Shown: positions 1-39,220 of the stretch, piece by piece
Numbering within the stretch: the stretch's first letter is position 1
Layout: the number at the start of each line of letters is the position of its first letter
Source: a virus
Direction: 5' to 3' (one strand)
Length of the DNA: 64,000 nucleotides
Virus record (IMG/VR): IMGVR_UViG_3300045988_035499
The notes under the pieces: model-generated
Told to the model about the DNA's origin: nothing
The model's input: the letters and a program-made list of their open reading frames with translations, nothing else
Databases searched by the model: none
Translations under genes and position numbers: made by a program

Positions 1-380
1 CCAGCGTTAATTTGATTTAAAGCAGCTTGAACAGAATTAAGATCACAGTTCAAAGTGCTAGACAAAGTACTGATAGCCTCCTTGTTTCCATTAATAGCCT
101 GCATAAGCAGATTAGTATTAGCATCAGTGTTCAGTTCAGAAGCCAAGCGACTAGCTTCATTGTTACCACGACCGAAGCCGTTGCCACCGAAACCACCCCA
201 GCAGAAGAAGATCAAAATGATCCAAATCCACCACCAGCCACCATTACCGCCCATGCCATTGTTGTTCATCATAGCCATAAGAGCTGCGGGGTCCATACTA
301 CCTTTATTAGCGTTCTGCATTAAAGCAGCAAGACCAGCATCGAAACCACGGTCTTGTACTATAATTCTATCTTCTAACAT
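1..380 (-). CDS. Gly-rich membrane protein, N-terminal part (gene runs off the window start)
   Basis: ATG at 380-378. Frame stays open to position 1. MLEDRIIVQDRGF...GGNGGWWWIWIILIFFCWGGFGGNGFG has a hydrophobic segment. Plus-strand ORFs 27..396 are its shadows. Confidence 0.5.
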   Translation of the reverse strand, partial: MLEDRIIVQDRGFDAGLAALMQNANKGSMDPAALMAMMNNNGMGGNGGWWWIWIILIFFCWGGFGGNGFGRGNNEASRLASELNTDANTNLLMQAINGNKEAISTLSSTLNCDLNSVQAALNQINA

Positions 381-409
381 AATTGATTTAATTTAAAATT
401 GATTTTTGA

Positions 410-1042
410 TTAATATCTAACATAGCGAGTAGCTCTACTACGTCCATATTCTGTATAAGGATCATACTCTCTTTCTCTTTCTTTTTCAAAGAGTTTGTCG
501 TATTCTTCACGTTCAACATCGTATCTGTTTCCATAAACTCTACGACCATACATACCTCCACGTCTACCACCTCTACGGTACAGACCAGCATGTTCATATT
601 CGTCTTCATCGTCTTCTTCGTATTTACCACGTTTGGATACTTCTTCTTCGTAGCATTCCATTTCAGCATCTCTGATCTTATCACACATAACGTAAATATA
701 GTAATACCACATTTTGCCTTCTTCAATGTCTTTATCATTTAACCAGGCTTTAGCGAATTCTACAAAATTCTTAGTGCTATTAGAATTAGTGATGCTTAAC
801 ATTACTTTATAGTAATCAGAATATACCATGTTGAGTGCAACAAACCAGTCATAACGATTAAACTTATGATTTAAGTTTATGCCATATTGATTTGCTAATG
901 CAGTAGTTTCCTCGAGAGACCAATGAGCGCCACGTGTGCCATCCTCATTTTCCATTTTACTTACAGCTTTACGAGCTTTTTCCTCATTGAAATGAGGTCC
1001 GTGTTCCATCTCGTAAGCCTTTTCACGAAATATTCTATGCAT
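410..1042 (-). CDS. hypothetical protein with an acidic and Arg/Gly/Tyr-rich C-terminus
   Basis: Intact 210-aa ORF ending in TAA, with no in-frame TAG. Confidence 0.55.
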   Translation of the reverse strand: MHRIFREKAYEMEHGPHFNEEKARKAVSKMENEDGTRGAHWSLEETTALANQYGINLNHKFNRYDWFVALNMVYSDYYKVMLSITNSNSTKNFVEFAKAWLNDKDIEEGKMWYYYIYVMCDKIRDAEMECYEEEVSKRGKYEEDDEDEYEHAGLYRRGGRRGGMYGRRVYGNRYDVEREEYDKLFEKEREREYDPYTEYGRSRATRYVRY

Positions 1043-1074
1043 ATTATTATTGATTAATATTTATTTGAATATAA

Positions 1075-1713
1075 TTATTTTGGTACTTCTATTATTCGAG
1101 TACCTGTTACCTTTATCAAAGGATTTGAATTTACTATCTGATATTGTTTGGTATGTATTTTCTTCCAATCAAAGTGCCAGAACCTAACCCAGCCATTTTT
1201 GTACTTAGTACGGTATTCCTTTTTTTCTTCTATGAAAATAGTTTGCTAGTTCTTTATGTCTAACTTGGCTGTTAGGATTGAGTCCTTTCTACTAACTATG
1301 ATAGTTGTTAATGGATTAAGTTTTAATTCCTCCTTAAAGTCTACTGTTTTATGCTTTATTACAGTTTTAATAGAATCTTTAACCTCTGTATTGATTACAC
1401 TTACATTTGTTAGGTTCTTGTCTTTGATCTTTAATTCTTTCTAAGTATTTTTTATCTACTGTATAAGACTATCTTTACTAGCATTTAATTCTTCTATAGT
1501 AAGCTATAATACTCTATTTTGTTTTTCCTTATTAGTAGCAATATCCTCATACGCTCTAACGTTGTTAGTTATTCTGTCTAATTCTTTGTCCTTTTTTTTG
1601 AGCTAATGGTTCTAATAAAAAACAGTCGCAATAAGTAAACTAACTAAACCTACTGCGACTGCTTTGTAATTTCCTGTGAACCAATTAACTATCTTTGCTA
1701 TTATTGGAATCAT
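1075..1713 (-). CDS. membrane-anchored coiled-coil protein, spanin-like (lysis cassette)
   Basis: ATG 1713-1711, TAA 1077-1075. Six in-frame TAG (low coords 1612, 1603, 1504, 1456, 1441, 1246) and no TAA/TGA. N-terminal TM segment (AVAVGLVSLLIATVF) then a Lys/Glu-rich helix. Overlaps the end of the holin-like gene. Confidence 0.55.
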
Positions 1714-2194
1714 CTGGTAAATCTTTATCTAATGATATATCTAAATATTTTTCTCCCTTTGCTTTGATCACTTTCTTGAGTATCTTCCAAATCTTCCATT
1801 TGGGATACAACTCGCAGAATGATTCTAATAACGACCAAAATTCTACTAATGCTATCATACCTGCTACAATCTCTACAGCATGTATATTAACAGATGTTAT
1901 TATCAACTGGTCAATAATAGAAGCACTTGTTATAGCTACGCCAGCATCTCTAACCTTCCATAAAGTTTTCCATGCCTTATGAGACTCTATTTTAGGATGA
2001 CCGCATTTTTTAGATACTTTATAACCATATAAAGCATCCAACAGTATCAATGCTCCTACGGCAGTGATAGGTATCCATATAGGTACAAATATTAAAATGA
2101 GACCTGTAATTATTGAGGCCACACATTTATCTGCACTACTGAACATGTTTTTGAAAATTGACATAGTATGTTCTCCTAATTGTTGATAAGTCAT
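1685..2194 (-). CDS. holin-like multi-pass membrane protein
   Basis: 169-aa ORF with several hydrophobic helices and a charged C-terminal tail. Sits directly upstream of the spanin-like gene. No TAG. Confidence 0.5.
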   Translation of the reverse strand: MTYQQLGEHTMSIFKNMFSSADKCVASIITGLILIFVPIWIPITAVGALILLDALYGYKVSKKCGHPKIESHKAWKTLWKVRDAGVAITSASIIDQLIITSVNIHAVEIVAGMIALVEFWSLLESFCELYPKWKIWKILKKVIKAKGEKYLDISLDKDLPDDSNNSKDS

Positions 2195-2364
2195 AGATAG
2201 TAGAATGATAGTAAGTTGTAATCAAAAAGCCCTAGAGATTAAAGGGGAGTAAAATCTGCTAGGGCCTGTTATTTTGTTGAGATTATATTTTATATAACGG
2301 TGTAGTTATAAGTATGTTGCTACGCATTCTTATTTCTGAATAAGAACTAATAGCTCTTTATACT

Positions 2365-4455
2365 TTAAGATGCTGCATTTACAGGATATGGATTAAATGT
2401 CAAACGTGTACCTATATCATTGTTTTTGTTACCAAATAAAGTATAACCAGTGTAGGAGAATAATCCAGCACCTGAAGAATTATTACTAGCACCACCAAAT
2501 GTTATCATCTTCGTATCTGTGGTAGCGTTAACAGAGCATTCGTCACAATAGTATGTATTACTTGTAGCAGATGTTTCTTTCGCAAATATATCTGCAGAGT
2601 TATTACCAATTATCTGTGAAATATAGCCATCTGTAGTTGATATACTAAACGCAGGTTTAGTCATATCCATAGTCCACTTATCAGTATCTGTACTAATATA
2701 TATGTTATTATCAGTTCCTGCAAGTGCAATATCTATCACAGCTTTTTTAATATGACCAAATGGATTCTCTATACCTCTATATCTAGGAACATATACAGTA
2801 TAGTTACCACCATTGTTCTAGTAGCTATAAGGCTTAGCACCAGTACCATTGCCATATTCATGAGTGGTACCAGTAGGTACAAATGCATAAGCTCCATTTT
2901 TTTGAGATTTGGTTACGCCTGCACCCAATCCTCCTTGATTGAACTCATTTTCCATGAAATCTACTTCTTTCGTTGTATAAAGGTCATCTTGAGTGTTTCT
3001 ATTCGCAAATTCTACAACGAATAACCAAACTAAAGTTTTATGAGCCTAATAAGTATAAACATTCCAATGATTTGATCTATTTCTGCCTCTGGCATATGCC
3101 TGCATTAAGTTTAAAGTAAGGTTAGTAGTTGGAATATTCGTACTTGATTGATTACTTGACACAGAGCGTAATAAAGTAGGAGTACTGGCAACTTCCGTTG
3201 CTTCGTATGCTGCAATATATTGTTTAGGTACTTTTTCAAATCCAGGCAGATTGTATTCACTTAATCTGATTTCTACCTCATTGTTTGGAGTAGATACTAG
3301 TAATCTGTAGTGCTCTGGTATTTCTACAAAATACTCTGGTGCATATCCTGCAGAGTCTACAGCAATTGCTGTTCCATCTTCCCACCTAGACCAATTTTCT
3401 GGATCAAGATACTTAATAACATCATCTGCGTTATTAATAGTACAGCCTCTCATCTTACTTTGAATAGGTAGTGTACTATGCATTCTTCTATTACCTGTAC
3501 GTCGTCCTTTTGGGCTAGAGTCAGTAAACCTAACTCCGTACCACAGACAACTATCAATCTAATTATATGATTCTGACAGAGCTATAAAGTCTGTAGATCC
3601 CATTAATCCTACACTATCATAGTAGGCTCTTTCAATATAAATATTTGACTAATTGTTCTGTTCATATTGTTTTGTGATATCATTATACTGATAATAGTCA
3701 TAGTCAATATAGACTCCATTATCTTCATAACGAACATCCATAGAATTATTCAAAATAGTAGTTGGAATAGAAGCTACTCTGTCAGTAACAGCTTTACCTT
3801 TATCTCCAGGATAGGCTGTAGAAGAATTTTCACCTAAAGCGATAGACGGACTAATCTCTATATAATCAGAACCAGACCAACGATATGTTAAATTGGTATT
3901 CTATGCTACATATATCTTACCAGATTCCCCAGTAATAGGGAATGATGATAGATTAGCATACTCAAGTACATCATCTACATAGGAAGGAAGTTGACTTTCA
4001 GGTATCTTACCATTAGAATTCAAAGAAGCTATACCACCTGCTACACCTTTAGTAGCCTCAAATGCCATGTGTCTATCTTCTAAGTCATCTAAATTATCCT
4101 GTAAAGTTTTATCTGCAGCTTTTCTGTCTGCTACTTCCTAACTTAACTTACCTGGTAATTCAACTAAGTAATTAGGTATCTGACTATTAGGAACTTTACC
4201 GTCTGAGTCAAGTGATGCAAGACCATTAGGTTGAGCTTTAGTAGACTTAAAGTTCTGTAAATCTTCATTTACGGCTTTAATCTTCTCATATTGATCTACA
4301 TTTGTGTCTTTATTCAAAGGTATCCATTCGTCCCCTTTAAAAGACTTAACTACGTTACCACTAGGGTCGCTAGCTAAATCAATCCAGTAAGAAACTTCCT
4401 TAGGGTTAGGAGCATATTGTGATGCTACAAAATTAGGGTTTTCTTTTCTTATCAT
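2365..4455 (-). CDS. tail fibre / receptor-binding protein
   Basis: ORF fragments 4138..4455, 3046..3483 and 2365..2739 share one frame. Six in-frame TAG (4138, 3901, 3649, 3559, 3046, 2818). The first true stop is TAA at 2365. Contains the fibre motif GKIYV..NTNLTYRWSG. Confidence 0.7.
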
Positions 4456-4466: not shown

Positions 4467-6866
4467 TTAAAATTGTTCAAAAGTCGAATTATCATCGAAG
4501 TTGTTTATTCCTTCATCATTATATATAGTTCTATCGTCATCTACTAAACTCATAGTAGAAATACTATTAACTGCGGGAGCAATAAACTCTGTACCGAAAG
4601 GAGTATAAACAACCCAAGTACCATCTGCCATTGTAGTTAATGTAACGATAGTACCTCCATGTGCTACATTCTTAGCAAGTTCTGCAAGCATTTGACTTGA
4701 CTGTTCATTAATCTTAGCAGGATCTGCATTAAATGACTCTATATTAAGATTCCATAAACTAGGTACTATAGTTGTATTAGGAAATATTTCTATTCCAGTA
4801 GTATTAGTTATTACTTTGTCTACGAATGCACGAGATCTTATTTCTACTCTACCAAGATTGCCAAACTTAATACCTTGTCCTATACCATATTTAATTCTAG
4901 TGCCCCATACTAATTGACCGTAACTATTACCTTGATTAGCGGATTCTACTATCACTCCCTTGTTATAATACGCTCTAAAAGTATTACAGTTAAAATGCGG
5001 ATAGAAATAACAGTATTGACATGGACCTAAGATATTGTACCCCATCCAGTCTTGCCACATACTGTTATACCAATATTCTCCATCTGGAGCACCAATATAA
5101 GAGCTAGCTCCTTCTAGCTTAATATTTGCATCAGAACCAAATAGCAAACATTCATTACATTCTGTAAATTGCATTCCTTTATAGTAGCCAAACATTACAC
5201 AGCCTTTAATAGTATCAGCATCTATCTTACTAAGAGTACCGTTAATATAGCTGTTTTCTAATCTTCCAATATTATTCCATGACCAATTTCTACCTATGAT
5301 CAAACAACCAGACATACCGTGTTTTTGTCCAAATCTGCACTTGCCAAATTGTGCACTTTGCAGAGACGGATCATAACCTCTTAGTAATACTGTATTAGCA
5401 CATTTACCATAAGTATATATTTCATTATCGAATACAGTAGTAGATGCACTATTAATTACAGAATCTGAAAATGCCATCACAAAATTAGCTACAGTGAACC
5501 TATCATTTAGACCTTTATAGCCATAATAATCATTACTTTTTATTCTAGTATTATATATCAAATAATCTGTAGTACTATTATATTTCATTCTTTCAGATGC
5601 ATCTGTACCATTATAGTCAAATGTATATCTGTCCATATAATCTTCTGAATCTACAGTTACATTGCACTGCCCCATCTTATTAGCATAACCAGTATTAGTA
5701 GCCACAGAAATACCATTTTTAGCGTACATATCGGTCTACCAAGCTAAGTACTTGTCATTCTGATTCTTAGTAGTATTCTGATACGGCTTCAAATTATCTC
5801 TAATGTAATCCTCATGAAAAGCGGTCTTGGAAGCCATGTCAGGTATTAAAGAATTGCCTCTGTATGTACCATTGAATATAGCAGGTATGAGGTTTACTTC
5901 ATTCTCTTCTCCAGAACCTATTATCTGTCGTCCATCTGACATATTGTAAGAGGTAGTCCTTGATGTCATTACTCTGTATGGACCAAACTTACCACCAGTG
6001 CCATCATTAGGAGTCATATTTGCAGTAATATCTTTAATTGCCCATCTTCTGAACTTAACATGTTTAAAGTCATAGCAAGCAGAGTTCTTGTTCATATCCT
6101 CCATATAATATACGCAACCAGTAGGATGATATGTAGTCATACCTTTAGTAAATAGTAATTCTTCAGGGTCAATAGTGTAAAGACATTTACGTATTGGCAC
6201 ATACCCTGGCTTTCTAATGTAGAATACCTCTTCATCAAACTTATCTTCAGATATAGCTCTAAGTATTATACACTCTACATCCTTTGCAGGTTGATTCATT
6301 TCAAATCCTTCATCTGTACCCATTGAAGGATGATTATAAGCACATGTATAATCTGTTATACCATAATAGCCACCTACTACTAACTTCTTTTCTTTACATA
6401 AACTAAAAATAGCATCATACTGTCCCTTCATAACATGCTATGCTTCTATCATGCTATATAGATAATCGTATGCTGTATCTACACGTCCGTCATTATAACT
6501 TTTATAACTATTAAGTTCGGACTGTAACCCGTTAACTAGACTACTTGTGCTAGATTCTAAAGTAGATACTGTAGTTTGAAGTGTAGATATATCAGTAGTA
6601 TTTTGGTCTACTATGGGATCATAATAATCACGTATATTTGGTTCTATCGTGTTCATAGTAGAAACAACATACTATATATCTTTAGATCTTTCATCTGCTT
6701 CAGTATTTATATCGCTTTTGAGTTCATTATATATCTCATCTACAGCAAATGATTTAATTTTAGAAGCACTAACAGCTTTATTATCCCCTTCTGATACTAT
6801 AGGAATTATTTCTTCACCAGTAAGCGTATCCTATACTGGTAATTGTGATATTTTTAAATCAGTCAT
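4467..6866 (-). CDS. tail fibre / spike protein
   Basis: ORFs 6438..6656, 5736..6431 and 4467..5729 share one frame. ATG 6866-6864. Four TAG (6831, 6672, 6438, 5736). TAA at 4467. N-terminus MTDLKISQLP..LTGEEIIPIV is typical of phage fibres. Confidence 0.7.
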
Positions 6867-7234
6867 TCTAATATAATTTTATTTCCGGTTTCCAACAATA
6901 GGTAGTGAGTATCTTCGGTTTCCAACAATAGGTAGTATCCAGTAGGAGGTGTTACTCCACCCTTAGGCAATCTCCATCTACCTAATACGGTAGATCCTAG
7001 ATCTGTATACTAACTTATCTCTATAGACTTACCAGATAAGGAAGATAAATCAATTTCACGAGTATTCTTGAATATTACTTTGTTACTCTAGTTATCTAAA
7101 TCTTTAACAATAAGCATACCTGAGAATATAGCAGTCTCAACAAAATCATCCTTAGGTATTATATTATATAACTATGGAAATACATAGTATGCCTAAGGAT
7201 TAATAAATATTGGATTATACAATGATGTCTTCAT
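6863..7234 (-). CDS. small virion-associated protein with a C-terminal YLLLET tandem repeat
   Basis: ATG 7234-7232, TGA 6865-6863 in an ATGA overlap with the next gene. Four TAG (7193, 7172, 7088, 7010). The 21-nt direct repeat at 6886-6936 encodes the duplicated YLLLET. Confidence 0.55.
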
Positions 7235-8702: not shown

Positions 8703-8892
8703 TTCTATTTACGCCTTTATTTAATTCTACTCTATCTTGTAGCATATTACCCATTAAATCTGCAGCAAGGTTAAGACTGAACTCTTTATTATCATCGTCC
8801 ATTCTGTCTACCTTACTATAGAGCTTAAGGAGTAGAACGTAAATCTACTCCAAAAGTTCTCTATCTGTCATATGTACTAAGTATTGGTTCAT
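8680..8892 (-). CDS. hypothetical protein
   Basis: ATG 8892-8890 in a TAATG overlap with the upstream gene. One in-frame TAG. TAA 8682-8680. Confidence 0.4.
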
Positions 8893-15880: not shown

Positions 15881-15881
15881 A

Positions 15882-27465: not shown

Positions 27466-27930
27466 TTATAATGTTTTAATATATTCTAAAAAACCTTTCT
27501 TACCATACTTTTTGTATGTTTTCTTTCTATTTTTGATTTTATATTTGTTAAGATTTTCAGGCTTACGAGTTTTTAGATAGTCTAAATTCTCAGCATTAGC
27601 ATAAGCCTCCATTTCATAACAAATAGTATAATAAGCTCCTGAAGCTGGATGTATTATTGGATTTCCTTTTAACCATTGTATTAAGTAAGACCAATAGTAC
27701 TTCAACCAAGAACCTTTATCTTTAGCCTAGTATAAGTGAATAGTCTCATGATTCCAAGTAGTAGGAGTTATAAGACTTTCATCTTTTCTAGATAATAGAT
27801 ACCCACACCAACTCATTGCAGAATACCCACTAGCTGGGTAATGTTCCATATGTTTATACTAAACTTTATCTGCCTTTACTTTAGTGAATAACTATTTAAT
27901 AATCCACCATGTTTCTTTAAACCAATTCAT
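27466..27930 (-). CDS. small protein with an HExxH motif (HETIH)
   Basis: ATG 27930-27928. Three TAG (27892, 27859, 27727). TAA at 27466. Confidence 0.5.
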
Positions 27931-27931
27931 A

Positions 27932-30436
27932 TTACTTCTCTCCTACCGTTTTATTCTTCAGTGCCGTGCGTGCTTTCAACCTTTCACGTTCCAAAGCTGC
28001 GTTATCTTTTTGTTTTTGTAGCTACTTCTAAGCTTCTAACTTTTGCTTTTCTAATTCAATTTTCTTATCTTCGATCTCTTTCTTCATCTTTTGTTCACGA
28101 ATTTTAGTATTGAATTCAAACTGTTTAGAGGCTTCATCAGATGCTTGTTTTCTTTCAGCTAAGGCTTGATTTGCTATCTCTATAGGATCGGGTATTCCAT
28201 TATTATCCTAGTCCATATCCTCTACACCCCTATAAGCATTGAGTTGAGCTACAGTGATCTTAGTAGCATTATCAGAATCTATCTTATACTTCTCAAGATC
28301 CATCTCAGCTTCCTTAATCATAAGTTCTTCTTCCTTAACTTCATTCTGCATTTGGATCATTTGCTGTTCACGTTGAGCTTGAGCTTCTTCTATAGCTTGT
28401 TGCTGTTCCATACGTTTCTACTCTATTTCTTCAAGTTTACCCTTGATCATAGTAACATTATCCATAGTAATAATCTCAGCAATATCAAGTAAGCTAGCTC
28501 CATTTTGCATAGCAGGCTGCATAAGATTTCTAAGGGCTTCTATCTGTTGTTGATTTTTAGTAGTGTCTTCTACAAATATATCATAGTCCTCATAGAAGAA
28601 ATTTTCAGATAAAGTAATGAAAGCTCTAGTAGCATCATCTAGTATGTAATGTAATTCTGTCTTATTATCTTTCCATACATACTTAGCTGTGTTGAGCAAC
28701 ATTGTGATAGCTTCCTTCTTCACTTGGTTATGCACCCAAAACCAAGGTTCAGTGATATGAGCAGACTGTACTACAGATCTTTCTACATTACCTACTAATT
28801 CATTAGATGCTATAGCTCCCTCACGCTGTTTACTTACTCCAGATATTTCAGACAGCATACTTTCAATCTTATCCATCAAATTGATGTATTGATCAATAGT
28901 ATTAGCCATAGAAAGGTCTAATGCAGTAATCTAGTTGAACTATGATGGTTTACCACCTTCTCTACCAGGTATGTCCCAACCCTCTTCATATGGGTTGATA
29001 AAGTTAACGCCAAGAGCAGATAAATAGTGCATCCATTTAGATACATCTATGTTCATAGACTTAGGTATCTGAGTAATATCCATATTTACTACTTTACCTT
29101 TATCTCTAGACATAGCTAACTCCAATCTATACCAAAGTACTATGTACATATACTGTAAAGGTTTCATCATACTAACTAGACTTCTAGGTCTACTATTAGT
29201 ATTATTATATATTACTCCAGTATATGGTAATCTTTGAGCATTAGGATTATCTGCAGATACATACTGATAGTCTACAGGCTATATTCCTACATAACCGTCT
29301 TCACCGTATCTATACCCTTCCCATACTTCAATTATCCATTTCCACTCTACATTCAACTCCATACCAGTTTCTTTATAAGTTTCATCAACTTCATATTCTT
29401 CTGGCATACCAGTTTCAGGATCAATTACAGTTACAAATCCAATCTTCTTAAATGACTTCCAACAACAATGCCACAATCTAATATTGTCTGAACCGTCAAA
29501 TGGATTAGAAGTGAATCCGTTTATGTTATGTAATTTGATATGAGCATAGTCTAATGATGTCTTTCTAAGTTCTGGATTTATACCTCCTTTGGCACCATCT
29601 TCCATTAGCTCCAGGAGCTCATTTAACTACTTCTCAGACATTTTATCATACAACCTGTCATATATCTCAGTTGCAGACATAATCATCTCATAACAGCACC
29701 ATTGTGCCTCGTGAATAAACTCTATATCTGATGTTTCAGTGTCATAATCAAAGTATAAAGGATTGATGCGTTGCATACATGGTTGTCCATTTAATACTCC
29801 TACATAGTATATCTCTTCTCCACCTATCAAAGCGTCTTTCCACCCTTTAAAGAATTCATGAGTAATATTAAGTTTATTCTTTAAATAATTAAGACTATGA
29901 TATGCTGTTATCTCTGCTATATCCTTATAGTCTTTACTCATGTATTTCTATATCTATTCTGGAGTCATAATCTCTCCAGACTCTAAAGCTTGCTGATATC
30001 TTTGCTATTCTTCAGGCCCTAGCTTACTCATAATAGTAGCCTGAATATAGTCTATTAACATCTATTTAGCTTTATCTTGCATCTCACTAGTAGCAATATC
30101 ACTAGTACGTGTAACTCGGAAGTTAAATGGCCTTTTAGTTTCCTCTCCTAATAGTAAGTCTATCTTTGGCTTGATTATATTATAATCCTAAGCCATAGCT
30201 GGGAATCCATCCTACTATTTAAAAGGATTTGTAACATACTTTAGATCTTTCTCATTATATATACTATTGTAAAGATCATAGTAAGTCTACATTTCTTCCT
30301 TACGTGTCCTAGTATTGCCATTTCTAGATCCTCCCTAACTGTGTCCTATAATATAGTCTACACAGGCTTCCTACCAAGCTTTTGTCTTCTTAGACATAGG
30401 AAGTTTCTATATCGGAAACTGATTGATATTATTCAT
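27932..30436 (-). CDS. portal protein
   Basis: Five ORF fragments (29627.., 29279.., 28940.., 28418.., 28208..) share frame 2. ATG 30436-30434, TAA 27934-27932. 19 in-frame TAG. About 834 aa, immediately downstream of TerL. Confidence 0.75.
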
Positions 30437-30438: not shown

Positions 30439-32490
30439 TTAAAACATATATGCTTCTATATTATTATCGATTTCATCGTCATGAAACCAATCTTGAGTAA
30501 AAATAGGACCGTCAAACAATACTCGATTCCTATTTTCGTTCTTTTTCTCTTTTACTTTAACATTATATAGCTGTTCTCTATATATCATTACCTGCATCAA
30601 CGCCATGACTCTATCGAAGTTTGCTGTATCATTATAACTGATAAGCTCTTCTAATAGCGGCTCTGATAGTATGTTGTGTAGGTTCTTCTTACCTGGTGAT
30701 TGTTCTTCGTTAAGCCAGTCTTTAATTAAGCCTTCTCCCCATTGCTTAATCTATTTGTTCATGTGACAACCTTTCTTTCTTTGAACTTTGGAGTTTCCAA
30801 CAACATCGGAAATAATATCGGGTTGATCAGCCAACAAATAGTCACAATGCTTAGCAGTAAAGTAAGGAAAAAGACCTTTTCGTTCGTTTTCATACATGAT
30901 ACGCCCGTTATAGTACACAGCTAATTTGCGAAGATTTTCATAGTACTCTTCAGCTGTCTAAGGCCTTCCTGTATATTCTGCAACAATAATATCGTAGTAG
31001 TTTTCAAAATTCTAAAATCTCTTATAAACAAATGTAGAACCTAACGAATTAGTACCCGATTGATCGTGGTCATAAGGGTCTACTCCTAATATATATAATC
31101 CTATAGGAGCATCCTTCATAGGGTGTTCCCATATCACTATAGCACCAGTTGGATCATCATCCTTCTTTAAAGGATAATGTGTTACATCTCCATGTTTCTT
31201 AATAACCCACTTAAGTGTACCATCTGGCTCCCACACTAGATCTCCAACCTATTTTACATTACTAAGACTCTTATTAGTACGTATTTTAGCTAACTGTTCT
31301 TGTAGTTCTTTCTTAGGGAATATATTACCGCCAAACTCCAAACATGCTTCCTATGGGGTTATACAGTGTTCTGCTACATATCTATCTACTGCTACAGAGT
31401 TAGTAGCATTTTCTACTACTTTTCTACGTTCAGATAATATGTACTCTACAGACTTCTTATACAGAGTATTACCATCTTTATCCATGTAGATTCTGTTGCC
31501 ATTCTCATCACGGAAGTCCATATTAGTATACTGTGGTATAAAGAATCCACATTGCTTATCTGATGGAGTTTCGTCCCATATATTATCAAATCCTAGACAG
31601 TTATAACCATCTGGATTATAGAACATATCTTTAAGAGTCTCAAAGTGGCTATCTTCATCTCCGCCAGTACCAAAAGCAATCATTGTACCAAATGCTACAC
31701 CGTCTTGTTCTACAGAAGGTCTAGCAATCTGCCATGCAGCACCTAGTTCAGAAAATGAACCAGCCTCTTCAAATATAATAAGTTTACCGGCTTTACCACG
31801 TACTACGTCAGGATTATCTTTTAGAGTAACACCAATAATCTCTGATTTGAAACCTAATTCCACCTCATTACCATATTCATCTTTAGTAAAGAAACCTGCA
31901 CGTTTACGCATCGAAGTATTAACAGATCTTTTCTTACCCCACGCAGTATTCTTATCTATAAAGTCCATATAATCCCAAGCTTTAGTAAGAATACCATCCT
32001 CTGTCAGGTATTGCTTATTGCTTGCGTATATATATGTCTTGCTACCAGGAAATAAGTAATAGTTACGGCATGCCATTGCTGCATTCTTGTATGAATAACC
32101 TTTACGTCTACTCTTTAATGCGCATAAATGTTTACCTAAACCTTCTGCATCTTCTACTGCTAGAAAGAAGTAATAGTCATAATCGTAAAAGTCAGGGAAC
32201 TGCAATTCACGAGTTTTCTTTACTTTAGTAGTTCCATCTAGGTTAGTTATAGTCGTATATATAATTCGTTGTATAGGACAGAAATTTAAATAAAAATAGT
32301 TATACCCACTAATGAAATCACCATCATCAGCAGTATAACCATACTTACATCTATCTCTCTACTCATCCCAGTATTTGAAGTACTCCGATGTACCTTGAGG
32401 ATACTAACAATAAGAACCAGACGCTAAATACTATAGTGCTGGTCCCCTAAATTTATCGGACTATTTAATTTTTTTAGTAAAGTCGACCAT
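30439..32490 (-). CDS. terminase large subunit
   Basis: Frame 1 runs continuously from ATG 32490 to TAA 30439 with nine TAG. Has an ATPase Walker B-like LIIFEEAGSF, a nuclease-domain GVDPYDHD, and C-terminal NFDRVMALMQVMIY. Confidence 0.8.
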
Positions 32491-32709: not shown

Positions 32710-33142
32710 TACTATTTAAAAGGGGCGCGTTTCACAACGAACCCCCTCTCTTAACCTTAAAACTCTTTTTTTAATGAAATCAATGTTTTTTACAAAACCC
32801 TGAAGTTTGTCTTACGACAGGGACAACAGGGGATTATAGGCTTAGAGTTTATACAGGAACTCTCTCAAACCTGCCCACTTACGATTGGGTCCATCATGAG
32901 CTGTGTTAACTATAAGCTTCCTTATATAGCTAGTGACTTAGGAATTTACGTTGTGCCGGCCTGCAACTTCACTATCGTAGAAAGGTTTGTGAGATAAAAT
33001 GCCAACGCCTCAGCTATCTCACACATTACCCAAATCGTGAATTGACCTTTCTAATAAATAAGTTAAAGGTAAGTAGAGGGTCATTCTTATCATATTTCAG
33101 AAGTTCGGATACTACCCACAGCTACTGCAAACTTACCTTTAT
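32710..33142 (-). ncRNA. group-I-intron-like structured RNA directly 3' of the suppressor tRNA
   Basis: No ORF. Nested long-range helices on the minus sense: AAAGGTAAGT/ACTTACCTTT, AGAAAGGT/ACCTTTCT, GTGTGAGATA/TATCTCACA, GTTG/CAAC. Also a CCTAAGTC element and a GAAG-capped hairpin. Ends in a GC stem plus a T run. Confidence 0.5.
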
Positions 33143-33182
33143 TGGTAGCCCCACTACGACTCGAACGCAGACTAAGAGGGTT

Positions 33183-34180
33183 CATTTACTCGACTATTGC
33201 ATCCAATCCTAAGATCAGTCTTCTCGTTTAGTCTGTCACGCTGCTTTCGCTTGCGCCTCGTCAACATTTCTGTCTTCCGAGTCAATTAGAGAAGATTCTA
33301 ATAGTGGATTATTTATTATCCCACTACCATCCAATATAGTCCAATAACTATTTAACCAAAAATTATCTTTATTGTAACTTATAGTTCTAGTGCAAGTTTT
33401 TATTCTTTTAGTCTTAACTTCACCTTTATCTATAAGGGCTTTGGCCGCTTCTACTAAACTTCCATATCGAGCTATTTCTTTATGGTTGTTATCGTATCGT
33501 ATTACATATCTTTGGTTTGAATGTTTTTGACCGGTCTCATTTACTATAGCAGTTACAACTTTGCGTCTAATACCTAGAATACTAGATACTTGTTTAACAT
33601 TTCTAACTCTGTCATAAGTATCAGATACTAACTTTCTTAATTCGTCAGTTATCTCATATTTAGATTCGTTTCTTTGTTGATTTCTACTACCATAAGTAGT
33701 GGTCTGACTATGACAATTAGGACAAAGAAATCTTAAATTTTCAAGTCTATTATCATTATTTATACCATTTATATGATCTACTTCTAAGCTTAATGTTTTA
33801 TCATTCCACTTATTTATCCCACATATGGCACATTTATAAGGTAATAGATTATTCTTTATTATACTTCTTCTAAGTACGGATCTTGTATGTTTACAATTTT
33901 CTCTAAATAGTACATCTGGAGATATCTCTTTGTCTTTATTAGATTTTAAGTAAGCATTCTTTCCTTTGAAATTAGAACTATCTAAGTTCAAGTCTGCCAT
34001 CCTTCGTTTGATTTGAGAATAGCCCCAAGAATTTCCGTTTGTTGTATATCCTAATTTAAATAATACTTCTGCAATATTTGTACTGTTGCATATTAATTCT
34101 ACAAACTGTTCGTCTGTACATTCGTATATTTTGTTTATCATAGCTTTATTTTTAACATTCAATTAATCATCGAACTTCTA
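33183..34180 (-). mobile_element. 998-nt intervening sequence in the tRNA anticodon loop (intron candidate with a homing-endonuclease ORF)
   Basis: U precedes the 5' break and G is the last nucleotide before exon 2, matching the group I splice-site rule. Almost all of it is the HNH ORF. A GAAA-capped hairpin (GCGCAAGCGAAAGCAGCGT) lies near the 3' end. Confidence 0.55.
33236..34141 (-). CDS. HNH homing endonuclease
   Basis: EVDHINGINNDNRLENLRFLCPNCHSQ is an HNH motif, flanked by CxxC pairs and a C-terminal helix-turn-helix-like region. ATG at 34141; the track's TTG start is at 34162. TGA at 33236. Confidence 0.8.
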   Translation of the reverse strand: MINKIYECTDEQFVELICNSTNIAEVLFKLGYTTNGNSWGYSQIKRRMADLNLDSSNFKGKNAYLKSNKDKEISPDVLFRENCKHTRSVLRRSIIKNNLLPYKCAICGINKWNDKTLSLEVDHINGINNDNRLENLRFLCPNCHSQTTTYGSRNQQRNESKYEITDELRKLVSDTYDRVRNVKQVSSILGIRRKVVTAIVNETGQKHSNQRYVIRYDNNHKEIARYGSLVEAAKALIDKGEVKTKRIKTCTRTISYNKDNFWLNSYWTILDGSGIINNPLLESSLIDSEDRNVDEAQAKAA

Positions 34181-34223
34181 AGAGCCTCCTGTGCTAACCA
34201 TTACACCATAGGGCAATATTAAG

Positions 34224-34327
34224 AGGGAGAGGAAGGACTCGAACCTTCAAACCCAAGAGCTTTATTAACGACGACTTTAGGGCGCTTCCGTCAATCTACT
34301 GCCGTATACCTATTCCGCCACTCTCCC
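34224..34327 (-). ncRNA. 104-nt tRNA-like element without a canonical anticodon arm
   Basis: GGGAGAG/CTCTCCC acceptor, a tRNA-Leu-like D region (TGGCGGAATAGGTATACGG) and a GAAGG-TTCGAGT-CCTTC T arm. The centre folds only as GACGG-13 nt-TCGTC; that loop contains CCCUAAA. Confidence 0.4.
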
Positions 34328-34564: not shown

Positions 34565-35098
34565 TTATCCTGCCAACTCATATGGATTTACCTTAGCGTC
34601 TCCTTTGACTCTACCCATCATAGTTTCTTCAGATTTAACCATGCTTTCTAGAGTATCTATAACCTTAACCACTTTATCTACTTGAGCCATACCATTAAGT
34701 AAGTCCTTAATCTTCTTTTCATCAAGTACTTCATCCAAAGAATCTTTATAATACTGACTAATGCTATCCAATTTTAGACGCATGTTATTGAATAACTGTA
34801 AAGTCTTAGTATTAATGAACTCTTTATAGCCTTCTTCACATATAGTCTCTTCAGCATTAAGTTTATAGTTAGAATCACCAAAGAATTGTTTCTTTAGTTT
34901 GGCCTCCCTAGTATCTTTATCCATACTGGTTACATATGGACTATTATACTTATTATTAAGCACAATATAACTTATTACTTTAGTAGCCCATACTTTATCA
35001 GGATCAGCATCGGCCTCCCATACTGTTCTAAAGCATGGGATACCTAATGCATCTGGGTGTATTTTTACTTTACCACCAATAAGATCAAATAGTTTCAT
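34565..35098 (-). CDS. hypothetical protein
   Basis: Intact 177-aa ORF. Its position upstream of the terminase region allows a small-terminase role, but no motif supports it. Confidence 0.45.
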   Translation of the reverse strand: MKLFDLIGGKVKIHPDALGIPCFRTVWEADADPDKVWATKVISYIVLNNKYNSPYVTSMDKDTREAKLKKQFFGDSNYKLNAEETICEEGYKEFINTKTLQLFNNMRLKLDSISQYYKDSLDEVLDEKKIKDLLNGMAQVDKVVKVIDTLESMVKSEETMMGRVKGDAKVNPYELAG

Positions 35099-35399
35099 TT
35101 GTAAGAACTTGTTTGTTATCTTTTTTACTCCACCTTATAAGATCGTCTTTAGCAAAAGCGTCAGAACAGACTATTGGTTTTAATGTCCACTTACTACTTA
35201 TAGTATCATATTTACTTAATATAAGTACAATATCCCCTAACTTATAATCTATTACTTCTTCTTCTGTTATTACTTGACCGTCCTACTATGCAACGTATAC
35301 GGTTCTACATTCAAAGTTATCAGATACATTTTTAATGCTATTAGTATCTGCTTTATATAAAATAGCATTACCGTACAGATCTATCAATAATTTATCCAT
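35085..35399 (-). CDS. hypothetical protein
   Basis: ATG 35399-35397. Two adjacent in-frame TAG (35286, 35283). TGA 35087-35085. Confidence 0.45.
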
Positions 35400-35400
35400 A

Positions 35401-35763
35401 TTAGCAATCACACTTAATATACTCACAATCACAACAAGAATTACAACCATTTGCTTTAGCTTCTTTTTGTTTTTGCTGTTGCTCTAGTAATCTGTTATAG
35501 TGATCTTTTACTTCATCACTTTCAACAAAGACATACTTTCTGTCATCATCTTTATCTATAGGATACAATTTTATTACCATAGTACCTTTAGTAACATTCC
35601 TTCTACATTTAGAACCATCTTTCTTTGTATAGATCCACTCTCCATCTTCGGGAATATACCACATACAGTCTGCGTAAAAACGATCTAGCAAGCTAATATT
35701 TTCTACTCCACTCTTGTAACCAATAACGATATCTCTATCTACTGAACAAATATACTTAATCAT
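35401..35763 (-). CDS. hypothetical protein with a Cys-rich C-terminus
   Basis: Intact 120-aa ORF ending ...NGCNSCCDCEYIKCDC. Confidence 0.5.
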   Translation of the reverse strand: MIKYICSVDRDIVIGYKSGVENISLLDRFYADCMWYIPEDGEWIYTKKDGSKCRRNVTKGTMVIKLYPIDKDDDRKYVFVESDEVKDHYNRLLEQQQKQKEAKANGCNSCCDCEYIKCDC

Positions 35764-35864
35764 AATATTAATCTATTCTATAACCTAAATAATATTCTTT
35801 ATTTAATCTCTCTAATATGCTTTCCGCAAGCTTCTACGGCACCTGCGGATTCACATACTCTGGG

Positions 35865-36197
35865 TTAGTCTTGTACTTCTGTACTATCTACTGAAATTCC
35901 TAAATCTCCTTCTATAGGCTCTGTTTCAACACATTTTTCATATTTACTTAACAGTTCATTACAAATACTATTTACCTGTTCAGTTCTGTTTTGTTCTACA
36001 CCTTCTTTACCGTTCTTTACTATAATAGTAGTAATAGCATCCATCATATCTTGAGCAAATGTTTCATACAGTAGTTCGCCTGCCTGTATCTTTTCATCTA
36101 CTACTTTATATAAATCTTTCATAGCCTTAGTAAGGTGCTCCTGATTAATGTTACCTTTTTCAAGACTCCACATTATTTTACTTTCTTCTATTGTCAT
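35865..36197 (-). CDS. hypothetical protein
   Basis: Intact 110-aa ORF. Confidence 0.45.
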   Translation of the reverse strand: MTIEESKIMWSLEKGNINQEHLTKAMKDLYKVVDEKIQAGELLYETFAQDMMDAITTIIVKNGKEGVEQNRTEQVNSICNELLSKYEKCVETEPIEGDLGISVDSTEVQD

Positions 36198-36204
36198 ATT
36201 GTTT

Positions 36205-36348
36205 TTATTTAAGTAAATCAGTTAATAAACTGAATATAGGTTTTCTAATGTTGTGTATGATCTTGTCTACAACTATATAGTCATCTGAGTCCCAAAACCC
36301 CTACTCCATCTCATATGCTTTCATGATATTATATCTATTAGCTATCAT
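36205..36348 (-). CDS. hypothetical small protein
   Basis: ATG 36348, one in-frame TAG, TAA 36205. Confidence 0.3.
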
Positions 36349-36370
36349 ATCATTAGCTCGATTGATAAGC

Positions 36371-36817
36371 TCATTGCTCTATATCATCATATAAGTCTTT
36401 TTTAAAATTGCTTATACTCTTACTTATACAACCAGCTGCCCACCCTACTAAGTAAGCATATGCTTCATTTCCTTCTGTGAAATCTTGAGAGAATATACCC
36501 AATTGACTATATATGTAATCTGCAACATGTACTGATTCATGTGGAATCATATCTGGAGTTATATCTTTCAGATCTATAGCTACTACTAAAACTCCATATA
36601 AACTATCAGATATACGCATTACAGGAATAGTAATCATACCACTATCGATATATCTAGAATCGTTAAGTATACTATCATAAGATGTTGGACTCTCTGTATA
36701 AGGATCTGCAATTTTCATAAATGAGAACACCTTATCTAGACCTTCTATCTTGTCTGCTACCCATAATTTCCTAGGATATACAACAGGGTCATGAGTTTCA
36801 ATCATTGGTTTCTTCAT
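36371..36817 (-). CDS. hypothetical protein with an HExxH motif (HESVH)
   Basis: Intact 148-aa ORF ending in TGA. Confidence 0.45.
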   Translation of the reverse strand: MKKPMIETHDPVVYPRKLWVADKIEGLDKVFSFMKIADPYTESPTSYDSILNDSRYIDSGMITIPVMRISDSLYGVLVVAIDLKDITPDMIPHESVHVADYIYSQLGIFSQDFTEGNEAYAYLVGWAAGCISKSISNFKKDLYDDIEQ

Positions 36818-36963
36818 ATCTTTTCTTGAGTTTAATCTTCCCTAGATAAGTAAATCTAATGGGTTTATTATTCATATTAGTTATAGCTTCATTAGTAAAC
36901 CTAAACGGGCTATTGCATATAACTTCTATTATTTGTCTTGGTAAGTTGTATTTATTACTTAAC

Positions 36964-37362
36964 TTAGTATATATACTCGTCTAATTTCTCATAAAGTTCT
37001 ACCTTTTTGTAATACCTACATGTATTTAAAGTAGTAGGTCCTGCAAATGTATTAGGTCTAACTAGGTTTATTATATTGGCAGTATCTACCCAATCTTCAT
37101 TATTATAACCACTGTCTTTGCACAGTATATTAAGTTTATTGCTCTCTACTTTACTATACTTACGTATAGGTTCGTATATCGCTGCATTAAAGTTAATTCC
37201 TGTATCATTTATCAATATCAGTTCAGTCCTACCTGGTATTATAGTAAACCTATTATAGGGTAGCTCTTTACGTCTAAGCCAAGCCCATACTTCCTTAAGT
37301 AGGCTATACTTTTTCCATGCTATTACTGAACCTGCTTCAATCATCATTGCTACCGCTTTCAT
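36964..37362 (-). CDS. hypothetical protein
   Basis: Intact 132-aa ORF. Confidence 0.45.
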   Translation of the reverse strand: MKAVAMMIEAGSVIAWKKYSLLKEVWAWLRRKELPYNRFTIIPGRTELILINDTGINFNAAIYEPIRKYSKVESNKLNILCKDSGYNNEDWVDTANIINLVRPNTFAGPTTLNTCRYYKKVELYEKLDEYIY

Positions 37363-37729
37363 CTTTACTTATTCTTAATACTATTGTTACTTGTACTCTA
37401 TCACCGATTATCTCTGGTACTAAAGCTTTACTCACCATCACTTCATCTTCTACTCTACCTTTTACAAGTATACCTTGATTCTTAAACTTAGTAATATATC
37501 TGCTGAGGTTATCAGGAGTAATACCTAGAATCTTTCTAATGTATTTCCTATTCTCTGTACTTATTACATTCTTACTGATATTAGGGAGCTTTGGTGTATT
37601 AATATCTATATCTATAAACGTTGCCAATAATTCTAACTCCCTATCAGTAAGATCAAGTATACCATTAAGTGACTTGAGGAATTCTTTATACAAATCGGTT
37701 TTAGACACAGTCTTAACCAATTTATTCAT
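37337..37729 (-). CDS. putative helix-turn-helix DNA-binding protein
   Basis: The segment RKILGITPDNLSRYITKFKNQGILV resembles a winged-HTH regulator. Confidence 0.45.
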   Translation of the reverse strand: MNKLVKTVSKTDLYKEFLKSLNGILDLTDRELELLATFIDIDINTPKLPNISKNVISTENRKYIRKILGITPDNLSRYITKFKNQGILVKGRVEDEVMVSKALVPEIIGDRVQVTIVLRISKDESGSNDD

Positions 37730-38117
37730 TATCCTTATTCATTAATCGTTTCTTAACTTCATTCAATACTTTTGTAAGGTTAAAGTAAACAGTCCTAGCT
37801 TCTACAAACATTGCTGGAGGAATCTCACCTTTATCTGCCTTCTCTTCAGCTGTTCTATAATCTTCTTCATACTGTTTATTTAACTTATCAATGAATGCTA
37901 AAGTATTATCAATTACTTGTGCATCAGATAACTCATCAATAGCAAGTAGATACTCATCTTCACAGTAACAGTCTGCAATATCATCGCTAATACTCATATA
38001 ACGATAAGTATTATCTTCTTCTACTTCTAGAGTAAACACTTCAGGATCTTCTACGCTATTAGTAAGAATATCACCTTTCTTTGCACAACCAAACTCTTTA
38101 ATTACTTTATATTTCAT
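37722..38117 (-). CDS. hypothetical acidic protein
   Basis: Intact 131-aa ORF. Confidence 0.45.
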   Translation of the reverse strand: MKYKVIKEFGCAKKGDILTNSVEDPEVFTLEVEEDNTYRYMSISDDIADCYCEDEYLLAIDELSDAQVIDNTLAFIDKLNKQYEEDYRTAEEKADKGEIPPAMFVEARTVYFNLTKVLNEVKKRLMNKDNE

Positions 38118-38129
38118 AATTTTATTTAT

Positions 38130-38275
38130 TAAATTTGTCTAATTTACAGGCAGCAAACCACATTAGGAATATACCACCTACAAATACACATATATCTGTT
38201 AACATACCCTTTAAACGCCTATATTATACTATTGTTAATAGCTTTTAACTTTTGTTAACAATTAGTTAACATATA
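38130..38275. promoter_or_regulatory. intergenic control region with GTTAAC-type repeats
   Basis: tctgttaacat, ttgttaatag, ttgttaacaattagttaacat. Lies between a terminator and gene 37722..38117. Confidence 0.35.
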
Positions 38276-38282
38276 AAAAGAA

Positions 38283-38312
38283 AGCCCAGCCTAAGCTGAG
38301 CCTTCTTTCTCT
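38283..38312 (-). terminator. intrinsic terminator
   Basis: On the minus sense, GCTCAGC-TTAG-GCTGGGC followed by TTTCTTTTTAT. Begins 14 nt after the stop of gene 38326..38679. Confidence 0.6.
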
Positions 38313-38325
38313 TACTTTATTAACA

Positions 38326-38679
38326 TTATTTGCAAATAGCAATGATGTCATATGTCTTAACTAATTGACTGTCCTTAAACAAATCAAAGTCTTTTGCAAA
38401 TCTCTTATTGTATACAACTATATCACCTACTTTAAACTCTTGGTCAGTCATAGATGCAGGCAACTGTAATACTACTCCTTTTGTAAAGTCAGATTCTACT
38501 TCCTTAGTTTCTGTTTTAGTTTCATATTCATTATAACCATCTTCATCTACAACACCAGTAGGAATCTGTTCTGTAAACTCTTTAGTAACCATAATAGGGT
38601 CTAAAGGTTTAATCCAAACATCTTTCAACATATTGTATTCCAGTCCATTAATGACTGTTTCTAGTACTTTATCTTCCAT
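38326..38679 (-). CDS. GroES-like co-chaperonin candidate
   Basis: IKPLDPIMV near the N-terminus and KVGDIVVYNK...YDIIAI near the C-terminus resemble the GroES/gp31 pattern. Similarity was judged by eye only. Confidence 0.35.
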   Translation of the reverse strand: MEDKVLETVINGLEYNMLKDVWIKPLDPIMVTKEFTEQIPTGVVDEDGYNEYETKTETKEVESDFTKGVVLQLPASMTDQEFKVGDIVVYNKRFAKDFDLFKDSQLVKTYDIIAICK

Positions 38680-38690
38680 ATTCTTTTAAC

Positions 38691-39020
38691 TTAGTTTCCT
38701 TCTATAACGTCTAAATCTAATTTATGTTGCTCTAATTTCACATAATCTTGATATGATACTTTAGCTCTTAAACTGAGAGGGCCATTATATGGATTTCTTC
38801 CTTCTACAAGATATACCGCATCGTCAGATAATACTACATTTACTATACCTTTAATAGTAGTTTGAGTAGTTATAAGTATATTCTCCTTTAAATAAAGTTC
38901 TGCTAACTCGTCCGTAGTAGCCCTTAATGCCTTGCTCAGTCTATTAAGCCTACTATTAAGCTTAGTCTGTTTCTCTCTTATACTATCGAACTCCTATCTT
39001 AATTCTTCTCTTTTTATCAT
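38691..39020 (-). CDS. hypothetical coiled-coil protein
   Basis: ATG 39020-39018, one in-frame TAG, TAA 38693-38691. Confidence 0.45.
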
Positions 39021-39220
39021 TTATCTACTAACTTTAGTATATTACCACCATTAGAGTTGCAGTATCTCCTAGCCATAGTAGGGCACTTAGGTATTCTTTC
39101 AAATGCGCAACCATCACAACTGCCACTACGTTGTGACCACACTGTATACTACTTATTTTCAATCTCTACTGGTATCCCCTTCTTTACTATCTCTGCTATT
39201 TCTGGATCGTATAATGTCAT
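39017..39220 (-). CDS. small Cys-rich protein (paralog of 39217..39411)
   Basis: ATG 39220-39218 in an ATGA overlap. One TAG. TGA 39019-39017. CDGC...C...YC pattern. Confidence 0.45.

Follow-up and report, generated by a model that had tools for sequence, protein, structure and literature searches.

Genes and features of the locus

We analysed a 64,000-nt stretch of viral DNA (IMG/VR record IMGVR_UViG_3300045988_035499; the whole stretch is called the window below) in which the late genes contain in-frame TAG codons and the gene of a tRNA with a CUA anticodon, tRNA(CUA), is split by a 998-nt insert. The window has a G+C content of 33.7%. All megablast matches of its 23-33 kb segment are uncultured crAss-like phages of the human gut, with 77-83% identity. 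The top one is cr52_1, classified as Crassvirales; Suoliviridae; Loutivirinae; Buchavirus, and the nucleotide identity of the window to Buchavirus is about 81%. The Crassvirales hallmark proteins, i.e. the terminase large subunit (TerL), the portal and the major capsid protein (MCP), are all present (PHROG matches with E values of 1e-134 to 1e-156). Judged by its sequence, the window is a Suoliviridae (delta-group) crAss-like phage.

The sign of the GC skew flips at about 40 kb; minus-strand genes run from about 39.9 kb down to position 1 and plus-strand genes from about 40 to 64 kb. The two modules and the split tRNA locus are as follows.

410-39924, minus strand: structural/late module of 42 genes, with 117 in-frame TAG in 25 of them and only TAA or TGA as stops
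39979-63792, plus strand: early/replication module of 34 genes in the standard code, with no internal TAG and six TAG stops
34215-33143, minus strand: tRNA(CUA) gene, whole split locus, interrupted in the anticodon between U35 and A36
34181-34215, minus strand: exon 1 of tRNA(CUA), 35 nt, 3' end ...GGAGGCUCU (C34 U35), delimited by reading the window against the tRNAs of relatives
33183-34180, minus strand: group I-like intron, 998 nt, inserted after a U and ending in G; proposed from pairing and covariation, with no Rfam group I match
33236-34141, minus strand: HNH homing endonuclease open reading frame (ORF), 301 aa, inside the intron, running through the proposed P2-P6 with its stop in J6/7 (phrog_10822, E 2e-45)
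33143-33182, minus strand: exon 2 of tRNA(CUA), 40 nt, with A36 A37 C38, the 3' anticodon stem CCUCU, the T arm, the acceptor strand, the discriminator A and an encoded CCA

In-frame TAG codons in the late module

Stop-to-stop ORFs of 150 aa or more take up 17.4 kb of the minus strand in the standard code and 34.3 kb when TAG is taken as sense. The plus strand is nearly unaffected by the same change (13.2 to 14.6 kb). Taking TGA as sense brings the minus strand to just 19.7 kb, a small gain that does not explain the fragmentation. Taking TAA as sense brings it to 27.1 kb and inflates the plus strand alike (13.2 to 28.7 kb), so that its effect is unspecific. Gene models built with TAG as sense cover the minus strand nearly without gaps.

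The 117 in-frame TAGs lie within 12,314 minus-strand codons, and the 42 genes end on TAA (31 genes) or TGA (11 genes). At the same rate about 53 internal TAGs would be expected in the 5,595 codons of the plus-strand genes, where none is found; TAG serves there as a stop (45122-45124, 45786-45788, 47283-47285, 49542-49544, 56691-56693 and 57407-57409). Chance is excluded because TAG makes up about 32% of the stop trinucleotides on the minus strand, yet 117 of 117 interruptions are TAG. Four of the six early-gene TAG stops are backed by a TAA located 0, 1, 1 and 6 codons downstream; readthrough of UAG late in infection would add 13 and 26 codons to the other two.

The late genes with assigned matches or high TAG counts on which the following comparisons rest are listed here.

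30439-32490, minus strand: TerL, 683 aa, 9 in-frame TAG (phrog_6681, E 2.9e-151, residues 14-657 in one stretch)
27932-30436, minus strand: portal protein, 834 aa, 19 in-frame TAG (phrog_6547, E 2.5e-156, residues 6-815 in one stretch)
23223-24692, minus strand: major head protein, 489 aa, 1 in-frame TAG (phrog_11589, E 4.6e-134, residues 5-486)
2365-4455, minus strand: tail protein, 696 aa, 6 in-frame TAG (phrog_5302, E 1.8e-67, residues 197-689)
8892-11366, minus strand: large tail/fibre-like gene model, 11 TAG, which are 0.33 of its glutamine (Gln) codons
11368-15627, minus strand: large tail/fibre-like gene model, 17 TAG, which are 0.40 of its Gln codons
1075-1713, minus strand: protein with an N-terminal transmembrane segment and a coiled coil, 6 TAG against 5 CAA/CAG; phrog_14010 (unknown function) is its only match

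An earlier note on this DNA, made from the letters alone, had reported that minus-strand genes are interrupted by TAG while TAA and TGA still terminate them, and our gene models bear this out. The stops that it cited are correct (TAA at 2365 and 30439, TGA at 6863 and 26130), and so are the plus-strand genes that it saw ending on TAG at 45786, 47283, 56691 and 57407 with none inside; stops at 45122 and 49542 are to be added. Its counts for TerL (9), portal (19), major capsid (1) and 1075-1713 (6) agree with ours; its total was about 107, ours is 117. The large tail/fibre genes contain 3, 4, 6, 11 and 17 TAGs; the first four are within the range of 3-12 that it had given and the last one is outside.

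The small minus-strand genes at 34.5-39.9 kb contribute 8 of the 117 TAGs. In the small genes located between the tRNA and the strand switch (35085-39444), the TAGs lie inside alignments to relatives; at one of these sites cr52_1 and cr56_1 also have TAG and cr10_1 has Lys. Since the TAGs of these upstream genes sit in conserved alignments, the recoding spans the whole minus-strand module and not just the genes downstream of the tRNA. The earlier description of the recoding as strand-specific was right in that the recoded genes are those of the minus strand; the recoding is however module-specific, and the strand merely coincides with it.

TAG accounts for 26% of the Gln codons across the late module. 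The highest shares occur at 6863-7234 (4/4), 15464-15898 (4/5), 27466-27930 (3/4) and 1075-1713 (6/11). The published TAG bias is towards genes of the lysis cassette, and these small high-TAG genes echo it, although the scans confirmed no function for them. We found no confirmation of the "spanin-like" label previously given to 1075-1713: no spanin, release factor or synthetase was assigned when the small or heavily recoded genes and the plus-strand proteins were scanned with PHROG and Pfam.

Glutamine at the TAG positions

For the PHROG profile search TAG was masked as X in the translations. Portal, TerL, major head and tail proteins each gave one continuous match spanning nearly all the internal TAGs. 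The profile search across TAG junctions that had been suggested as a check of the recoding thus runs unbroken in these four proteins. Assemblies of about 100 kb that contain the same late proteins are numerous and independent of each other.

At the TAG columns of the portal, Q is present in every one of the 120 closest homologues from the database. We set them aside, as they were probably translated with code 15 and are not independent, and the residue was assessed instead by tblastn against the DNA of 11 relatives. In cr10_1, which has no in-frame TAG in 10 genes, Gln occupies 16 of the 42 columns where the window has TAG. Gln amounts to 2.4% at the other columns of this comparison (binomial p ~1e-15) and to 52% at the columns where the window has a true Gln. 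The other 26 of the 42 TAG columns contain in cr10_1 A, K, E and D (4 each), N (3), I (2) and H, S, F, L and G (1 each), which are mostly common replacements of Gln. At the TAG sites of the portal, cr10_1 and cr1_1, both devoid of in-frame TAG in this gene, have Gln (CAA/CAG) at 13/19 and 11/18 sites respectively. Among recoded relatives the same 19 sites are occupied by 6 TAG and 8 Gln in cr52_1, and by 5 TAG and 10 Gln in cr56_1. Gln codons and TAG together represent 3.6% of the minus-strand codons, and Gln 3.2% of those of the plus strand.

The reading of late-module TAG as Gln is thus supported by comparison with relatives: homology crosses the TAGs, relatives in the standard code show Gln at these positions, and TAG and CAA/CAG interchange among recoded relatives. 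Recoding of late genes from TAG to Gln has been published for delta-group crAss-like phages (PMC7886860) and for crAss-like phages generally (preprint 10.1101/2021.08.26.457843), and metaproteomic data from a Suoliviridae phage bear it out (PMC10136315). The earlier statement that it is established for some crAss-like phages is therefore correct, and holds for this very family (PMC7886860, PMC10136315). The recoding itself is already known for Suoliviridae, of which the window is a further member.

Two late proteins vary in length among relatives. In a portal homologue from an ENA contig (P0001; 1185 aa, 83% identical), some 350 aa are inserted behind about residue 50, and this insertion may be an intein. 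The TerL of cr56_1 is likewise enlarged (1024 aa).

A split tRNA(CUA) gene

A CUA tRNA was not found in the window by ARAGORN, used by default or with introns allowed, nor by the Rfam tRNA model. In cr52_1, cr56_1 and cr6_1 an uninterrupted CUA tRNA of 74-80 nt, annotated as tRNA-Gln, is located just upstream of the terminase gene. Reading the window against these genes revealed two tRNA halves, 998 nt apart. Joined in silico they form a 75-nt tRNA that ARAGORN recognises as tRNA(cta), with the anticodon loop CU-CUA-AC of the CUA tRNAs of the relatives.

An exact-match scan of IMG/VR with exon 1 returned 58 contigs. Exon 1 runs straight into AACCCTCTTAGT in 54 of these and in one truncated contig; the insert is carried by 3 of the 58. 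The boundaries of the insert are uniquely defined, because the intact alleles join exon 1 to AACCCTCTTAGT at exactly the predicted junction. This junction is GGAGGCUCU followed by AACCCUCU after splicing, and the sequence of the intron-less allele is GGAGGCTCTAACCCTCT. For 7 of 8 lineages, in-silico splicing yields a tRNA(cta) recognised by ARAGORN. In at least 10 diverged tRNA backbones, the two strands of the acceptor stem and of the anticodon stem remain complementary at a distance of about 1 kb, and selection on the joined molecule is therefore indicated. Carriers of the insert keep a heavy use of TAG: the portal of the window has its 19, and that of Bohxovirus PV686213 is annotated as 4 ORFs. 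The window had been presented before as a complete example of recoding with the decoding tRNA on board; both halves of tRNA(CUA) are indeed present, but they do not form a plain gene, and completeness hinges on the putative splicing of the 998-nt intron.

Two further elements border the split gene. The first is immediately upstream of it.

34224-34327, minus strand: tRNA-like RNA, 104 nt, derived from tRNA-Tyr, next to the suppressor (Rfam tRNA, 34 bits)

Its D, variable, acceptor and T arms are of the tRNA-Tyr type, and for the acceptor and T arms the source is a type II tRNA-Tyr that also occurs in other phages. The "anticodon" arm is 32 nt long; its loop is CCCUAAA in the window and in 8 of 10 near-identical contigs, and CUCUGAA or CCCUGAA elsewhere. 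As a decoder we rejected it as a canonical tRNA, on account of the 32-nt arm and an 8-nt loop. On the other side, 32745-33142 (minus strand) is an ORF-free stretch of 400 nt between the 3' exon of the tRNA and a small ORF upstream of TerL, present in some relatives (L086) and absent in others (L027, L029). Its folding was no better than that of shuffled sequence (z = -1.0), and Rfam gave a weak terminator-like match at its 3' end only.

The 998-nt insert and its endonuclease

The ORF of the insert contains an HNH domain (Pfam HNH, 26 bits for a cutoff of 21.4), and none of its 9 Gln codons is TAG. A protein of exactly this sequence is encoded on at least 23 contigs, which come from many independent gut samples. 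In eight IMG/VR loci whose endonucleases show 69-85% identity, CUA tRNAs of different sequence are interrupted by the same insert at this position, and GenBank PV686213.1 (Bohxovirus, subfamily Oafivirinae) also has it at this site. A scan with a 29-nt core motif returned 24 loci, and in 24/24 the motif is followed by the 3' half of a CUA tRNA. The intron family thus occupies one site in CUA tRNAs of at least 10 different backbones. Presence and absence are polymorphic at this precise site, with 54 intact and 3 split alleles behind an identical exon 1. With an encoded endonuclease and site polymorphism both observed, the insert has the features of a mobile intron with a homing endonuclease. 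Free-standing endonucleases are located behind the intact tRNA in cr56_1 and cr6_1; they were considered as homologues of the intron HNH protein and rejected, not being homologous.

The GenBank record PV686213.1 (our locus L105, 65.2-66.3 kb) is annotated in the standard code. Its portal is cut into four "hypothetical proteins", its HNH gene is labelled "hypothetical" and its split suppressor tRNA is left unannotated. With introns allowed, ARAGORN miscalls this suppressor as Lys(CUU).

A proposed ribozyme core

A compact group I core can be drawn in the final 150 nt of the insert. The elements of the proposed structure are the following.

33332-33330, minus strand: proposed internal guide sequence GGA, in the invariant TTGGATGG, just 5' of P2
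33326-33302, minus strand: proposed P2 of the core drawing
33295-33289 with 33225-33219, minus strand: proposed P3 of the core drawing
33281-33238, minus strand: proposed P4-P6 of the core drawing
33235-33229 with 33196-33191, minus strand: proposed P7 of the core drawing, with a bulged A
33216-33205, minus strand: proposed P8 of the core drawing
33183, minus strand: terminal G of the intron, which ends ...AAAUG

The core includes the P3/P7 pseudoknot and a G-C pair in P7. In the seven distinct sequences, from which the structure was itself derived, 98.9% of the pair cells are standard, and both partners change in 8 of the 39 pairs; in slid controls, with the same pairs shifted by 1-3 columns, 32-46% of the cells are paired. 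The sequence ACAGACUAAA around P7 presumably resembles J6/7-P7-J7/3 of Tetrahymena; we take this as a lead and not as a test.

The 5' exon ends in U in 8/8 lineages. A candidate P1 would pair the exon UCU with the guide GGA, with a G-U pair at the splice site, and the UU flanking GGA could pair with AA of the 3' exon (P10). The 39 nt that separate the 5' splice site from the ORF were searched for a guide sequence, and this leader was rejected, nothing in it being complementary to the exon; the candidate was put downstream of the ORF. With this guide the ORF would lie in the loop of P1 and run through P2-P6. We call the insert a group I-type intron, which probably splices.

Weighing the explanations

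Our preferred reading is that of a two-code phage, in which late UAG is read as Gln by a phage tRNA(CUA) whose gene is split by a mobile group I-type intron. We give it a probability of about 80%. Besides the shared origin of core structure and pair counts, several points weigh against it. The Rfam model Intron_gpI (RF00028) was unmatched at its gathering score, at E values up to 10 on 1.7 kb, and on the 161-nt core stretch. The ORF of about 900 nt in the proposed P1 loop may block the Rfam alignment, which we call an excuse and not evidence. The candidate P1 has 3 bp, is invariant and overlaps coding sequence. Group I introns need a terminal G (omega-G), and one intron lineage (L023, L025, L026, L105, L106, L111, L113, L114, L116, L117, L123 and L126) ends in ...TTTAAYA, with A instead of G and no G within 9 nt of the 3' junction. 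Its proposed P7 guanosine-binding pair is unchanged, and at least one of its genomes (Bohxovirus PV686213.1) retains a TAG-fragmented portal; on the sequences at hand a canonical group I intron would not account for this A-ending lineage. Finally, the PHROG and Pfam scans recovered neither a release-factor nor a synthetase gene among the tested plus-strand proteins of the window.

The missing Rfam match and the copies without terminal G would also fit a split suppressor that is dead, the insertion being unable to splice, with UAG decoded by the tRNA-like RNA at 34224-34327, by a host suppressor or by a co-infecting helper phage. The loop of that RNA, CCCUAAA here and in most near-identical contigs and CUG-bearing in relatives, adds to this explanation, which we nevertheless consider unlikely. 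A dead gene does not fit tRNA halves that keep complementary stems over at least 10 backbones at a distance of about 1 kb, nor the compensatory changes in the intron core. As for the decoder, an arm of 32 nt (not 17), an 8-nt loop and a C at the position of U33 make the tRNA-like RNA unfit for the decoding geometry of the ribosome, and two intron-bearing contigs as well as all the IMG/VR copies have the CUG loop. The hosts of crAss-like phages use the standard code (PMC10136315), which also weighs against this explanation.

The preferred reading also requires that the inserted residue be Gln. Decoding of late UAG as another residue, e.g. Glu, Lys, Tyr or pyrrolysine, could be argued from the 26 of 42 TAG columns that are not Gln in cr10_1 and from the ARAGORN label "Pyl", which this program gives to any CUA tRNA. 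We hold it to be very improbable: no other residue comes near Gln at the TAG columns (38% against a background of 2.4%) and the rest are mostly its usual substitutes, TAG and CAA/CAG swap among close relatives, the CUA tRNAs of relatives are annotated as tRNA-Gln, and metaproteomics in Suoliviridae found Gln. That the TAGs are genuine stops, the late genes being pseudogenes or the assembly faulty, has nothing in its favour beyond the raw presence of stop codons. It is already refuted by interruptions that are TAG in 117 of 117 cases, by the continuous homology and by the same proteins in many independent assemblies of about 100 kb.

Proposed course of expression

Under the two-code reading, the standard-code replication genes would be translated by host ribosomes, and the minus-strand module would then be transcribed with the pre-tRNA included. 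The intron would excise, presumably by self-splicing, and the 75-nt tRNA with its encoded CCA would mature. Host glutaminyl-tRNA synthetase would presumably charge it; amber suppressors are known to be glutaminylated (preprint 10.1101/2021.08.26.457843). UAG would then be read as Gln in competition with release factor 1, giving full-length portal, terminase, capsid, tail and lysis-region proteins, so that full-length virion proteins would appear only once the suppressor tRNA is available. The TAG-free HNH endonuclease would carry the intron into suppressor alleles that lack it in co-infecting relatives.

Other genes and RNAs of the window

The replication block contains the following assigned genes.

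49939-50499, plus strand: sigma-like factor
58233-60221, plus strand: DNA polymerase
60817-61803, plus strand: DnaB-like helicase
62397-63137, plus strand: Sak4-like protein

A normal tRNA-Arg(UCU) is located at 56777-56851. A second tRNA match (58142-58213, plus strand; Rfam 45 bits) ends 20 nt before the start codon of the DNA polymerase. Its acceptor, D and T arms are normal; the anticodon loop is shortened, to 6 nt according to ARAGORN or to a 4-nt loop on a 5-bp stem.

Between the small early genes there are three Hatchet ribozyme matches (42941-43052, 43151-43271 and 45184-45304, plus strand), with 85-96 bits for an Rfam gathering score of 51; a quick literature search found no link between hatchet ribozymes and crAss-like phages. 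The same early region contains a full-length RAGATH-9 RNA match (46571-46740, plus strand; 134 bits for 75). At 48162-48600 (plus strand) ARAGORN calls a permuted tmRNA with the tag peptide GNTSYVTDYTRLVA, overlapping a tRNA-like element with a 2-base "anticodon". RefSeq has a tmRNA at the equivalent place in cr52_1. The Rfam tmRNA models did not match at 48162-48600, and the call may be an ARAGORN false positive.

The stretch 53400-55450 (about 2 kb) has no ORF of at least 50 aa wholly inside it in any frame; the lone longer ORF (70 aa, minus strand, 53891-54103) is not gene-like. No single stop reassignment opens a frame there, and Rfam gave no match with E up to 1. In cr52_1, cr53_1 and cr56_1 the stretch is found in synteny and carries no annotation, with pairwise identities of about 70%. 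Within 54100-54520 (420 nt), RNAalifold predicted a structure in which 22 of 101 pairs have compensatory changes among 5 sequences. The stretch is thus a candidate for a large structured noncoding RNA of Loutivirinae phages.

Comparison with known systems

The window resembles cr52_1, cr56_1, cr6_1 and Eld241-t0_s_1 (PMC7886860; 10.1101/2021.08.26.457843; PMC10136315), which belong to the same family and have TAG as Gln in the late module only, standard-code replication genes and a CUA tRNA just upstream of the terminase. It differs from them by its suppressor, uninterrupted over 74-80 nt in these phages and split by the 998-nt intron here.

Inserts in the tRNAs of Lak megaphages, other TAG-recoded phages of Bacteroidota, were described as "enigmatic introns" (Devoto et al., bioRxiv 10.1101/356790), and they too were missed by bacterial tRNA finders. 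A Lak tRNA-Tyr with an insert may parallel the tRNA-like RNA at 34224-34327; that text credits the Lak inserts, unlike the one reported here, with no endonuclease, gives them no type and mentions none in a suppressor. The intron of the window can also be set beside better-characterised ones.

Group I introns are known in the anticodon loops of bacterial tRNAs, i.e. tRNA-Leu(UAA) of cyanobacteria and plastids, tRNA-Ile of Azoarcus and tRNA-fMet of Synechocystis, the latter with I-Ssp6803I. They share with the window an intron of self-splicing type in the anticodon loop and a compact core, and, for tRNA-fMet, a homing endonuclease. In the window, however, the interrupted gene encodes an amber suppressor of the phage, which a recoded module needs. 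The intron carries an HNH-type endonuclease whose ORF extends across P2-P6, Rfam gives no match and the splicing is putative. Group I introns with endonucleases also occur in protein genes of phages, as in td, nrdB and sunY of T4 and with I-HmuI (HNH) in SPO1. Introns in the MCP, PolB and primase genes were described in delta-group crAss phages (PMC7886860). These phage introns, like that of the window, combine a mobile intron with a homing endonuclease in an essential gene and are polymorphic among close relatives; the target in the window is instead a tRNA gene, and the family is found only in CUA tRNA genes (24/24).

We met no account in the literature of a suppressor tRNA interrupted by a group I-type intron with an endonuclease; our coverage of it was incomplete and gives no proof of novelty. 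The split suppressor is a new form of known kinds, and the recoding is known.

Significance for TAG-recoded phages

Most TAG-recoded phage genomes lack a detectable suppressor tRNA, and the mechanism was left open (PMC7886860, PMC10136315, preprint 10.1101/2021.08.26.457843); host suppressors or divergent tRNAs are the explanations given in the literature. The window offers a checkable explanation for some cases, in which the suppressor is present, split by an intron of about 1 kb, and missed or miscalled by tRNA finders in bacterial mode. Under the preferred reading, production of the portal, terminase, capsid and tail proteins would depend on a single ribozyme reaction. The insert is also a case of a selfish element aimed at the gene that defines the private genetic code of the phage. 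Annotation pipelines for recoded phages should thus seek tRNA halves around this intron core.

A wider proposal, which we put forward tentatively and consider rather doubtful at present, is that the intron family is specialised on the amber-suppressor tRNA genes of TAG-recoded crAss-like phages, the late translation of its carriers depending on RNA splicing. If this is true, split suppressors would explain part of the "missing suppressor" problem, which concerns about 60% of the TAG-recoded phage genomes. Splicing, or the conflict between translation of the endonuclease ORF and folding of the overlapping ribozyme core, could add a timing gate to the code switch.

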